Source of the DNA: Bdellovibrionota bacterium
GTDB taxonomy: Bacteria > Bdellovibrionota_C > UBA2361 > JBGSMV01
Reading direction: 5' to 3'
Assembly (NCBI GenBank): GCA_041739995.1
Contig: JBGSMV010000053.1
Location: forward strand, 1 to 33,736
DNA length: 33,736 bases
Made by a program: the position numbers and the translations under genes. Of the stretch, positions 1 through 4,853 are shown piece after piece (position 1 is the first letter of the stretch; each line of letters starts with the position of its first letter). The notes below the pieces were generated by a model. That model was not told the origin of the DNA and did no database searches. It saw only the letters and a list, made by a program, of their open reading frames with translations.

Positions 1-96
1 ATTTCCAGAACCTTATAAAAGTTCGGTAACTGGAATTATGAGGCTTCAACCACTCAAACAGCTTCTCTTTGGTAACCTTTTTTATGAGGCTTATCG
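1..96. mobile_element. Putative terminus of an unidentified element interrupting pilT (continues beyond left edge)
   Basis: About 37% GC (36/96 by hand count) versus about 60% immediately downstream. In-frame TGA at 85-87 where PilT sequence is expected. Two 22-bp direct repeats. No recombinase gene in the window. Confidence 0.5.
25..92 (+). repeat. 22-bp imperfect direct repeat pair
   Basis: 25-46 GGTAACtggaaTTATGAGGCTT and 71-92 GGTAACcttttTTATGAGGCTT; 17/22 identical, 46-bp period. Confidence 0.85.
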
Positions 97-777
97 CCCA
101 CTGGCTCGGGCAAGAGCACTACTCTCGCCTGCTTCGTGGACTACTTGCAGCGTCAGGTGCGCAACCTGCACACCATCACCATCGAGGAACCCATGGAGTA
201 CTCTTACCAGGTTGCTCCAGGGGCAATCGTCACGCAGCGAGAGGTGCCGGTTGACGTCCCCTCATTCCACGAGGGCCTGCGTCAAGCACTGCGTCAAGAC
301 CCTGATGTGATCGTGGTCGGTGAGATGCGCGACATCGAAACGACCAGAACGGCGATCAGCGCAGCGGAGACCGGGCACTTGGTCTTCGGAACGCTCCACA
401 CGGTGAGTGCAGCAAAGACAATCGACCGACTCGTAGAACAGTTCCCCGGCACAGAGCGATCTCAAGTTCGCTCCCAGGTCAGCACTTGCCTTATTGGAGT
501 GCTGTGTCAGCAACTCATCCCCCGCAAAGACGGCGAGGGACGGGTGGCTGCCTTCGAGTTCATGGAGTGCATCAGCGCCATCTCGAACCTGATTCGCACC
601 GAGAAGACCGAATCGATCGAATCGACCATGCAAACCAGCGGGAAGTCACGCGGCATGCAGTTACTGGACGACCACCTGACGCGCCTGGTCCAGGCCGGCA
701 CTATCGATAAGCGCACTGCTCTTGAGTTCGCCAACAACCACGACAGGCTCTCGGCTCGACTCGCCGCTGAGCCCTGA
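97..777 (+). pseudogene. pilT: PilT/PilU-family type IV pilus retraction ATPase, 3' fragment lacking the N-terminal domain (interrupted gene)
   Basis: Frame from 97 reads PTGSGKSTTL (Walker A minus its first Gly), TIEEPMEY, LRQDPDVIVVGEMRD (Walker B), AAETGHLVFGTLH (His box) and AISNLIRT (AIRNLIRE-like). Stop at 85-87 upstream; no internal lesions downstream. Confidence 0.88.
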
Positions 778-953
778 ACGAGTGAACAGACATGCGGTCT
801 ACCGCTCAGCTATCGAGGTATTCTGGGAAGAGGGGCGCGCGCATCATGCGGAAATGAAACCAAAGTCTCCGCAGACACGGTCTTATATCCTTCATCGCAC
901 GCCCCTCAATTTTTAGACACAAGAGAAGAATGGCGCTGTCGTACTTCGAGCCT

Positions 954-1709
954 TTAAAATTTGATTTTTCGCACACCGTATTGCTCGAACTCTTCCTCAA
1001 TAGATTTTAGGACCGCTTTCGGTACCTGCCCACTTGCAGCCGCAATCGGGAGAAGCTCAGCGGCTTCGGACATATGAAAATACTGCACCGGCGGCGAGAG
1101 CGCTGCGAGGGCTTCCGCGACGCTTGCACCATCGTCGCGGCGCTCCATTCGGTTCGTCAACCCAATGGCGACTCGACAGTCAATCTGCGCTTCTCTCAAC
1201 TGCTGGATACAACCAATGAGACTACCCCCCGTAGTGGTGACGTCCTCTATCGCTACGGTCGCGCCTCTTGGCACCCCTAAGAAATATTTATCCTTGGCAA
1301 CCCCGTGCTCCTTGGGCTTGCCTCTTCCCATCGGAAGCACGTGAGACCCACTCGCAAATTTCCCAGAATTTTCGGCTAGTTTCATTTGAGCAAACAGGGC
1401 TGCTTTTGTCGCGCCCTCTGGCACTCCAAAGAGCGTATCGGGCATCTTTGCGAGCTGTGAGGTTCGAACTAGATCGGCGACAAACTCAACTAAGAAGCAG
1501 GAGAGCTCTCTAAGTAAAAAAGCGTCTTCAGAAACAGTTCTCCAGTTTACGTACCAGCAAGAACGCCTTCCTGATTTAAGCGTTATGGGCTCATCGAAAA
1601 ATCCAATAACTTTATGTTTCAACACAAAGTTATTAAACGCCGCTTGATCAAACTGATTCTCTTCAGAGCCACCGGTAGCAGCAGCAGAAGTTGCTTGCGA
1701 ATTCGCCAT
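954..1709 (-). CDS. pyrE: Orotate phosphoribosyltransferase-like protein
   Basis: LKSGRRSCWYVN, GRGKPKEHG loop and PRPP motif VAIEDVTTTGGS. ATG 1709 chosen because a GGAGG RBS precedes it. Confidence 0.8.
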   Translation of the reverse strand: MANSQATSAAATGGSEENQFDQAAFNNFVLKHKVIGFFDEPITLKSGRRSCWYVNWRTVSEDAFLLRELSCFLVEFVADLVRTSQLAKMPDTLFGVPEGATKAALFAQMKLAENSGKFASGSHVLPMGRGKPKEHGVAKDKYFLGVPRGATVAIEDVTTTGGSLIGCIQQLREAQIDCRVAIGLTNRMERRDDGASVAEALAALSPPVQYFHMSEAAELLPIAAASGQVPKAVLKSIEEEFEQYGVRKIKF

Positions 1710-1813
1710 GAGACTAAACCCTCCCCAACTATGAGACTCGCAGGGAATTCTGCCCGATTGCATCGAGCAAGGTCAAAAACTATCTCACGAGATAGGAGGG
1801 CCGAGCTGCCAGA

Positions 1814-2959
1814 CTATTCGGCAAAATATCGAAGGATCGCCCCCCAAGAGAGCCATGGTGCGCTAAAGGCGATAAGGACGTATAGCACGGCGATAAACTG
1901 CACGGCGGCAGCAGACTCTAGGACTCGCAAATTCCAGCGACTTCTGGGGTCCGTAGTTGTCATTTGAGTCTCTTGATTGGCGGAAACCGCCGCTTCTGAC
2001 TCTTGGTGTGTGCGATCTTCTTGCTCTTCAAGCGCTTGGGTTGCGGCCTTGGCAGTGGCCTGCGCAGAACCTTCAGCCCCTGGCACTTCCGCTGTTTGCT
2101 TCTTGAAAGCTTTGCTTGAAGCGCCTTGCACTATCGACTCTACCACAACCCCAGCTTCTACCGATTTGTGAACGGTTCGTTGCACCATGTCTCGTACAGA
2201 AAGATTCTTGGTGCGAATGGCTCCTATCTGGGTAGCGACAAGCCCGCGCTCATGTAGGGCCAGTAACCCATCCATAAAGTGAAAGTCGCTTAGCATGGCG
2301 CGCTCTCGAAGATGCTCACAAGAAAGCGGCGGCTCAAGGCAGTCATACAGAATTCGCTCCTCAACGGTGAGCACTCCCTCGGGCACTTCGGTGCGACTGA
2401 CCCAGCTTCCTGCAGGAAAAATGGAATGGTAATGTTCTTTGTTATGCGGCAAAGCCACCAAGTCTAAGAGTAGCTGCCCTACGGAGATCGTCGGGGCAAA
2501 CTCGCGATCTACCTCCACCATCTGCGGGTGAAACCTATAAACAGCCTCTCCCTCAAGTTCCAAGGAGTACACTTGATCGAGAATGCGCTGGCGAATGACG
2601 CGCCTATACACTTCAGCATCTAACTCATTGCCACTTTGGGCGAGCTGAAGGAAAAGATCTCGGTAGTAACCCGAGAAGCTCTGGCAATCTGGCTTTCCCT
2701 CATTCCCAGATTTTGACGTTTCACCATGGGGGCTCCATTGGAAACCCTCGGCAACAACCAAACCACGACGGAGCAGTTCCAGAGTCTCGTGAGCCGGCGT
2801 CTCCCCAGATATCAGCGCTTCGACGGCCTTCCCTTGTTGAAACCAGACCTCACACTTGCGATCTGGATAGGAAAGCTCAAGCACGCCCTGACGACGCTTC
2901 TGCCCTATCTGGCGAAGTATAGTTTGAAGGCTCTCTTCTGATACTAGTCCGGTCTCCAC
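1814..2959 (-). CDS. DUF4388 domain-containing protein with C-terminal TM helix
   Basis: N-terminus G-x(5)-SLQTILRQIGQKRRQGVLEL...EVWFQQGKAVEA is typical of DUF4388. Hydrophobic C-terminal segment. Confidence 0.75.
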   Translation of the reverse strand: METGLVSEESLQTILRQIGQKRRQGVLELSYPDRKCEVWFQQGKAVEALISGETPAHETLELLRRGLVVAEGFQWSPHGETSKSGNEGKPDCQSFSGYYRDLFLQLAQSGNELDAEVYRRVIRQRILDQVYSLELEGEAVYRFHPQMVEVDREFAPTISVGQLLLDLVALPHNKEHYHSIFPAGSWVSRTEVPEGVLTVEERILYDCLEPPLSCEHLRERAMLSDFHFMDGLLALHERGLVATQIGAIRTKNLSVRDMVQRTVHKSVEAGVVVESIVQGASSKAFKKQTAEVPGAEGSAQATAKAATQALEEQEDRTHQESEAAVSANQETQMTTTDPRSRWNLRVLESAAAVQFIAVLYVLIAFSAPWLSWGAILRYFAE

Positions 2960-2963
2960 AGCG

Positions 2964-4853
2964 TTACTCCTCTCTCTCTTTGAGATGCCATCCGGCGTAA
3001 ACCGTTCCGATCAGCCAGAGGCCAAGGAACGAACCTAATAGCGGTTTTATGCTTGGGGCGACCTCAAACAATTCTAAAGCTCCCCATGGCCATCCAAGAA
3101 ATGGCATCGCGAAAAAAATCGGAATTGAAAGCAAAATCAAAGCGATACCGGGAAGCCCAGCCCAGAGAGCCGTACCGCCTGGAATGAGCCGAACGAGTAA
3201 ACGAAGTGAACGGCTCGGCACTCCAGCCGCGTAAAGAATCTCCTTTCGCACTCGCCGAGCAGGCGCTCCCTGGACAAGGAAAAGAAGGACCAATATGGCC
3301 CCGAGGGCAACCAATAAGATCGGATGGGAGCCATACATCATCGCCTGCGCACTCAGCGATGCGCGGATGAGTATCTGGTCGTCCAGTGGGCTCTCCGGAG
3401 CGAGCACCGCTTGCAGCGCATCAAAGAACGGCAGAGGAATTTCAGCCAAAGCCAAGGGACTACGGTCTCCAAATCTTTCTTCGCGCTCCCTTAGGTCAAG
3501 GGTGAGACCAGGATTAGAGCGCTCGACCTCGGTGGAGAGCGCCAGGCTTTGATCTATCTGGAACTTAGCGAATGCAACCTTGGAGAGATTCAACGTGAGC
3601 GCATGCCCACTAAGGCCCAAACTCTGCGCTTCAAGCAGCTTTTTCTCCGCGGCTTCAAAATCACCCTGCATGTAATCGAGAAGTCCCAACTGAGCAACCG
3701 CGAGGCGAGCGCTGGACGATCCAGCCTGCTTCCACATGGCCTGAGCCCGAGAGAACGAGGCCTGAGCATTCGAAAGTGCGCCCTCTCGACGCTCCGCCAC
3801 TCCCAACACGTACTGCAGCTCAGCAGATCCCTGATAATCGAGAGCAAGCTTAGAGAGAACTAGGGAATCGCCTAAACCTGCATGTCCAGCGCTACTGCGT
3901 ACGAATTCCGAAACCCTCGGAGCCGAAAGATAGAAGTCAAGTGACTCTCTAATTGGAATAAGCGCTCCCCATAGTCCGATTACCACACCGGCGTATAGGG
4001 CAAGCCACCGTCTCCGGGGAAGGACTACGAGTATGGTGAGCCCCCAGCACATGAGTGCCCAGAGTGGTCCCGCAACGATTGGCAGAGTGAGCAGCGTCAA
4101 CACTCCCACAGGCGCGATCACCCCACGAAGTTTCTGGTAGCTTTTTAGTCCAATGAAGCGCAACGGAGCATTCATCCCCAGCGCGAATGCCAGCACCATG
4201 AGGACATACAGCGAAATGGTGAGTCCCCAAAGCATCGGATAAATTGCCGTCGACAGTAGAGAGAGCTGAAATGCTCGATCGCTGCCAATTGTGGCTGCAA
4301 CATTAAACACCTGCTGCAAGAAGCTCTGATACCCGCTTAGATGACTCACGCGCATGGCGCGAAGCGAAACCTCCGCCGAAGCTGGTGACAGACGATAAGC
4401 CCAACTCACCAGCGCGGCCGCGAATGCGTGATCTCCTCCCGCAAGTGCATGCTCCGCGGTCTGAATAAGCGTAAGAGACCAAGACTCTGCCGACGAAAGG
4501 TCCAGCAGTCTCATCCTCTCGCCCACCGCCTCCAGCTCTTCAATTACTTGGCTACGCACCTGAGGCTCGGAGAGTCCTTGAGTCAACAATCTCGAAGCAC
4601 GATTCCACGAAAGGTTAAGCTTCTCCTGCGAACTCATGCGCAGCTCTAGCGGCTCAGGTGGACCGAGTATTTCTTGCGGTAGTGGCCCAACCAGCAAGGG
4701 AGGCTCTATCATTGTGATCTGCGAGGAGCTCGGTTCTAGGTGCGCAGTTTGCGCGACGCAGACCGAGGACGTGGACACAAGAGCGAGAAGCGTTAGCAAG
4801 TGCCAAAGCACGCGCACTCTCGCCAGAAGTTTATATTTTCTAGAATAAGTCAT
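2964..4853 (-). CDS. Multi-pass membrane protein with tetratricopeptide repeats
   Basis: 629-aa ORF with signal-like N-terminus, several hydrophobic helices and TPR-like segments (QYVLGVAERREG..AQASFSRA; AQLGLLDYMQGDFEAAEKKLLEA). Confidence 0.7.
   Translation of the reverse strand: MTYSRKYKLLARVRVLWHLLTLLALVSTSSVCVAQTAHLEPSSSQITMIEPPLLVGPLPQEILGPPEPLELRMSSQEKLNLSWNRASRLLTQGLSEPQVRSQVIEELEAVGERMRLLDLSSAESWSLTLIQTAEHALAGGDHAFAAALVSWAYRLSPASAEVSLRAMRVSHLSGYQSFLQQVFNVAATIGSDRAFQLSLLSTAIYPMLWGLTISLYVLMVLAFALGMNAPLRFIGLKSYQKLRGVIAPVGVLTLLTLPIVAGPLWALMCWGLTILVVLPRRRWLALYAGVVIGLWGALIPIRESLDFYLSAPRVSEFVRSSAGHAGLGDSLVLSKLALDYQGSAELQYVLGVAERREGALSNAQASFSRAQAMWKQAGSSSARLAVAQLGLLDYMQGDFEAAEKKLLEAQSLGLSGHALTLNLSKVAFAKFQIDQSLALSTEVERSNPGLTLDLREREERFGDRSPLALAEIPLPFFDALQAVLAPESPLDDQILIRASLSAQAMMYGSHPILLVALGAILVLLFLVQGAPARRVRKEILYAAGVPSRSLRLLVRLIPGGTALWAGLPGIALILLSIPIFFAMPFLGWPWGALELFEVAPSIKPLLGSFLGLWLIGTVYAGWHLKEREE

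Follow-up and report, generated by a model that had tools for sequence, protein, structure and literature searches.

Why does a gene for a PilT-like ATPase begin inside its Walker A motif, at the very edge of the analyzed DNA? The window, by which we mean the whole stretch of 33,736 nucleotides (nt), is an entire contig (C33; G000:C33:1-33736) of a draft genome with 81 contigs and 3.81 Mb (completeness, 91.26; contamination, 2.4). The window start is therefore a contig end. Translation of frame +1 gives three stops in positions 1-96. Beginning with ..PTGSGKSTT.. at base 97, the frame is free of lesions for 226 codons, up to a stop at 775-777. Pfam T2SSE matched the product of 97-774 with 131.5 bits, starting at model position 150, and the NCBIfam family pilT_fam (TIGR01420; family cut-off, 319.1 bits) matched it with 274.7 bits over profile positions 130-341 of 343. 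The GC content rises from 0.39 in 1-100 to 0.59-0.62 in the intervals that follow, and the residues expected ahead of the P-loop (GLVLVTG) are not encoded in any frame of positions 1-96.

The original prediction, made from the letters alone, had described these features correctly: the abrupt PilT similarity from position 97, the jump in GC at the junction, the replaced GLVLVTG and the undamaged downstream codons. It read the cut as the mark of a site-specific element or genetic switch or, alternatively, as the 3′ splice site of a group I intron or IStron, and it named a contig end at the window start as the circumstance that would speak against such an element. The window is indeed a whole contig, and no contig bridges positions 96/97. 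The explanation that we favor, and consider very probable, is that a single insertion sequence (IS) of 1293 bp split a PilT/PilU-family gene and that the contigs were broken at the collapsed repeat. The features at the contig start are listed in Table 1.

Table 1. Features at the left end of the window (strand given relative to the window)
Feature	Position	Strand	Remarks
IS left (transposase-proximal) end, read outward	1..96	-	Terminus at base 96; 100% match to 12 contig ends and to C77:4688-4783
Inner repeated site, IS left end	22..46	-	L021:1051-1075; 46 nt from outer copy; 76% identical to outer
Outer repeated site, IS left end	68..92	-	About 25 nt; L021:1005-1029; inverted with respect to right-end sites
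Target-site duplication CCCA	97..100	+	Pro codon and first base of the Walker A Thr codon; the same four bases end the C27 flank
3′ gene part, PilT/PilU-family ATPase	97..777	+	226 codons and stop; pilT_fam 274.7 bits; undecayed; separated from first 138 codons and promoter
Convergent downstream phosphoribosyltransferase-like gene	954..1763	-	60% identical to the gene downstream of the G001 ortholog; synteny anchor, outside the element

The missing 5′ half and the interrupted gene

When the genome was searched with the T2SSE profile, C27:76721-77119 matched weakly, over the N-terminal model positions 12-153. This interval is the very end of contig C27, where it adjoins the second of the two repeated end types of the IS (B end, see below). 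The 5′ half, which the original prediction had sought to the left of the window, was found there: from L022:4444 onward, C27 encodes 139 intact codons ending in ..RPRGLFLVTGP, and the frame then runs for 26 codons into the IS. This half matched pilT_fam at profile positions 2-130 with 92.1 bits. Taken together, the halves span profile positions 2-341 of 343, as in the PilT/PilU ATPases of TIGR01420, but here the gene is split in Walker A, and each half alone (92.1 and 274.7 bits) stays below the family cut-off. The motif is discontinuous, with ..VTGP on C27, PTGSGKS.. at window position 97, and the IS between them. Descent from the PilT/PilU family is clear; as it stands, the gene is not a whole member.

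An intact ortholog is present in a genome of the same genus (G001). It reads ..GLFLVTGPTGSGK.. and scored 386.5 bits with pilT_fam (cut-off, 319.1). The N half, 60% identical, aligned with ortholog residues 7-137, and the window half, 74% identical, with residues 137-358; the overlap of one residue is explained by the duplicated Pro codon. The halves thus meet at residue 137, with CCCA at both junctions, in agreement with the earlier placement of an element in the Gly-Pro(-Thr) codons of Walker A. When the IS and one duplicate were removed by script, a 379-codon stop-to-stop frame crossed the site, and the original gene would have had 364 codons. Neither a contig nor a read spans C27-IS-C33; the duplication, together with the reading frame, is what leads us to infer this physical link.

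The locus was compared in relatives, as had been suggested for the supposed pyrE-adjacent site. G001 has the intact gene without an element, and the neighboring gene is conserved. The naming of this neighbor as pyrE stood only in part. Its product is phosphoribosyltransferase-like, but with 48.9 bits against a cut-off of 106.8 for the pyrE model it is a distant relative rather than pyrE itself; no Pfam match was obtained for it at E ≤ 0.001. The next two genes, both on the minus strand, encode a 381-amino-acid (aa) DUF4388 protein (window 1814-2959) and a multi-pass membrane protein of 629 aa (window 2964-4853) that no Pfam model matched.

On C27, approximately 1 kb upstream of the 5′ half, lies a gene for a 626-aa flagellin with Flagellin_N and Flagellin_C domains (L022:1593-3473, minus strand; G000:C27:73843-75723). 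Its central variable part contains FG-GAP/FG-GAP_3 repeats (135 bits, six stretches). Judged by these matches, the part appears to be a β-propeller-like insert displayed on the flagellar filament protein.

The insertion sequence and its target sites

Window positions 1-96 recur with 100% identity at 13 other places in the genome, 12 of them no more than 45 nt from the end of a contig and one internal (C77:4688-4783). With contig ends read outward, two repeated end types were distinguished, A (the window type) and B. Each occurs 14 times, 13 times at contig ends and once inside C77. The sole fully assembled copy (C77:4688-5980; 1293 bp) has an A and a B end facing each other, and its outermost 140 nt on either side are identical to the sequences at the contig ends. 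Because approximately 14 nearly identical copies are present, the short-read assembler collapsed the IS and broke the contigs; such a collapse would leave the two gene halves on different contigs, the 5′ one ending C27 and the 3′ one starting C33.

In the C77 copy, the IS begins at L021:1001 and contains one long open reading frame (ORF) of 393 aa (L021:1097-2278). It starts at IS position 97, i.e., 96 nt from the A terminus, ends within the B end, and occupies 1182 of the 1293 bp. At the window, its start codon corresponds to the three bases immediately left of base 1, on the minus strand, and the IS lies antiparallel to the interrupted gene. A different reading had been offered for this edge: frame +2, said to be open through position 310, was proposed as the tail of an element gene. 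The frame is open (ORF 2-310), but the transposase gene is on the opposite strand and starts just beyond the window. We also rejected the frame +2 ORF as an element gene in its own right. Its ATG (position 38) belongs to the IS end, and from there the frame continues into any flank; at the C77 copy, the same start opens a 247-aa frame of unrelated sequence.

The product of the long ORF was matched by the Pfam rve integrase-core domain (36.6 bits; cut-off, 32.6). Among NCBIfam models, the IS481 model NF033577 gave 44.8 bits (cut-off, 224) and the IS3 model gave 29.1 bits (cut-off, 160), and no other family matched at E ≤ 0.01. Each IS end carries two copies of a 25- to 33-nt site, spaced by 46 nt at the A end and by 40 nt at the B end and inverted between the ends. 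These are presumably transposase-binding sites. A transposase gene, inverted terminal sites, 4-bp duplications and 14 copies per end are all present, as in a DDE insertion sequence. A simple consensus scan of window 1-1000 for promoters and terminators returned no site of either kind, and hence nothing in the IS end to suggest an outward promoter, although so simple a scan is no evidence of absence.

To which family the IS belongs was judged from its gene and ends. ISfinder gives the ranges of element size and duplication length for the IS481 family. The present IS resembles that family in its length of approximately 1.3 kb, its single rve-type DDE ORF, its terminal inverted repeats and its short target duplication. 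It differs from IS481 in that the transposase scores 44.8 bits against the required 224, each end has two sites of approximately 25-33 nt, and its relatives are unnamed or have generic names. Its termini also lack the terminal trinucleotide that we take to be characteristic of the IS481 family. By sequence, the element is classed here as an uncatalogued rve/DDE insertion sequence, a relative of the IS481/IS3 type that is nearest to IS481 but far below its cut-off.

The flanks of the copies were used to examine the target sites. Eleven of the 14 A ends pair one to one with a B end through a reverse-complementary flank of four bases, i.e., a 4-bp duplication, whereas approximately 0.8 such pairs are expected by chance (196 comparisons/256). 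No pairing at five bases was found among the 14 A ends. The eleven duplicated tetramers all differ (CCAA, AAGC, CCGC, CCTA, CCCA, CACG, ATGG, GGTT, CCCC, GGCA and CCTG), and the flanks are unrelated at all 14 sites. The search for an element gene and a target duplication, recommended with the original prediction, had a positive outcome with the rve/DDE transposase and CCCA. The idea of a site-specific element that targets a conserved site in a competence gene was not borne out: instead of an element with its own tyrosine or serine recombinase and one target, there is a multicopy IS whose sole long ORF is of the rve/DDE type, at 14 unrelated places with 4-bp duplications. The insertion is not site-specific, and it is neither an intron, nor an integrative element, nor a programmed switch.

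A group I intron or IStron with its 3′ splice site at 96/97 has a negligible probability. Apart from the codon-boundary position noted in the original prediction, nothing speaks for it, and even that position does not hold for the original gene, in which the cut falls off the codon boundary, CCCA being the Pro codon plus one base of the Thr codon. Against it stand the terminal inverted repeats, the DDE transposase and the target duplications, and an Rfam search of window 1-1000 at E ≤ 1 returned no RNA family, introns included.

A programmed or reversible switch, in which precise excision restores the gene as with skin for sigK or the nifD element in heterocysts, is highly improbable. In its favor, both halves are intact, so that a precise excision of the IS together with one CCCA would yield the 364-codon gene. 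However, the sole long ORF is the rve/DDE transposase, and the 14 copies occupy unrelated sites. Of the eleven reconstructed sites, three are in open frames of at least 250 codons, but the other eight are in short open frames. In addition, the G001 ortholog is intact without an element, and the IS was not found in the four same-family genomes searched.

Because the junction is unbridged, a pair of IS copies enclosing further DNA would be indistinguishable from a single copy at this locus. Three A and three B ends, situated at ends of C5, C22, C7 and C8 and at both flanks of the assembled copy C77:4688-5980, are without partners. A composite insertion of this kind is nevertheless very unlikely. 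The outer junctions have the orientation and the 4-bp duplication of a single copy, like the 10 other pairs, and nothing points to cargo. The unpartnered ends suggest IS-mediated rearrangement, missing contigs or a chimeric assembly path.

Other repeats also end contigs in this genome. At least half a dozen further families were noted by shared 60-nt end sequences, e.g., in the groups C15/C16/C52/C53, C14/C44/C48/C65, C13/C39/C64 and C5/C11/C79. These shared ends indicate that the genome carries several other multicopy elements besides the present IS.

Taken as a single insertion, the event can be described as follows. The IS would have entered the PilT/PilU-family gene where the codons for ..VTGP meet those for TGSGKS.., with duplication of CCCA. 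It would have inserted antiparallel to the gene, bringing with it one predicted rve/DDE transposase gene and two repeated sites per end.

Age and spread of the insertion sequence

Four public metagenome runs from one study, labeled hot spring and biofilm, contain the window DNA as Logan contigs. In all four, the IS forms a contig of its own, with a length of 1293 nt in two runs and of 1323 and 672 nt in the others. The depth of the IS contig is 44-90, compared with 2-6 for unique DNA, consistent with the approximately 14 copies in the assembly. At this depth of 2-6, none of the Logan contigs bridges 96/97, and positions 135-201 are uncovered in three of the four runs.

That the insertion is recent follows from the identity of the IS ends among copies and from the lack of lesions in either gene half. 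It would be part of an expansion of the IS in this lineage. Identical copies and undecayed halves would also fit a young insertion that is possibly not yet fixed, so that part of the population keeps the uninterrupted gene. In favor of this, the draft is fragmented into 81 contigs, and several metagenome runs from a single study contain this DNA. The empty site, however, is in no contig of the genome or of the four runs, where coverage is too thin to tell. We regard such a polymorphism, which is compatible with the single insertion, as unlikely.

At E ≤ 1e-10, none of the four same-family genomes searched, including the same-genus genome with the intact gene, yielded the transposase; repeats often go unassembled in genomes of this kind. 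The transposase is present in 9 of 26 more distant genomes of the order, mostly with 36-44% identity. The closest copy in these other genomes (G023:C45:40492-44163; L034) is 83% identical over residues 46-269 and has two in-frame TGA stops. It is a putative decayed copy of the same IS type.

Database searches with the transposase returned 1779 relatives at E ≤ 1e-5. Among the 120 relatives listed, most are on contigs of approximately 1.3-2 kb and are unnamed or called "hypothetical protein," one bearing an RNase M5 label. A search of plasmids gave 269 records, all with less than 60% identity, and the 12 matches listed carry generic names only ("DDE-type integrase/transposase/recombinase," "transposase") and no IS family name.

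These results leave some room for a broader reading: the element could belong to an unclassified, widespread clade of single-ORF rve transposases whose recent burst here was selected, with loss of the accessory pilus-retraction ATPase as a polymorphic adaptive variant. The 1779 relatives, unnamed or with generic names where listed, the scores below every curated IS-family cut-off and the doubled sites at each end point in this direction. Overall, we consider this reading improbable. If it were true, ATPase loss in this hot-spring/biofilm lineage would be, e.g., a phage-escape or biofilm variant.

PilT paralogs and the consequence of the insertion

Contig C78 carries an intact tandem of PilT/PilU-family genes (pilT-pilU), both open, which scored 494.7 and 442.4 bits with pilT_fam. 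The interrupted gene shares 49% and 40% identity with these two. In a set of 30 relatives, a close ortholog of it was found only in the same genus (74%) and in the same family (59%). When contigs were searched with the 3′ half, the best 80 of 563 relatives were at most 56% identical and came from many phyla, none of them being a closer ortholog, although records near this genome were possibly omitted. Judged by these comparisons, the interrupted gene is a third, lineage-restricted paralog of the PilT family.

Since the P-loop is split, neither fragment would be expected to hydrolyze ATP. The outcome would be a loss-of-function mutation in an accessory retraction-ATPase paralog, without programmed switching. 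The original prediction had suggested that the element could switch off or regulate motility and DNA uptake. The effect on either need not be large, because the intact pilT-pilU pair is kept; the consequence for twitching or DNA uptake may be small.

Disruption of pilT by an IS is already in print. ISDra2 sits in pilT of Deinococcus radiodurans in strain ATCC 13939K only, where transformation is reduced, and it is treated as a strain-specific loss-of-function mutation, without the insertion in close relatives (PMC11219805). In both cases, a multicopy IS interrupts the gene of a pilus-retraction ATPase. The two differ in the type of IS and in context: the ISDra2 case concerns a single functional pilT with a measured phenotype (PMC11219805), whereas here a third paralog in an uncultured draft genome is affected.

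The finding is mainly a correction, in that what looked like a precise cut of a conserved motif at the window edge results from the contig being broken at a collapsed IS. The IS, with approximately 14 copies, explains 26 of the 162 contig ends, and eleven contig pairs can be scaffolded via their 4-bp duplications. It could be registered as an uncatalogued relative of the IS481/IS3 type. For the organism, the insertion would mean that one of the three PilT-family genes in its genome has been inactivated.
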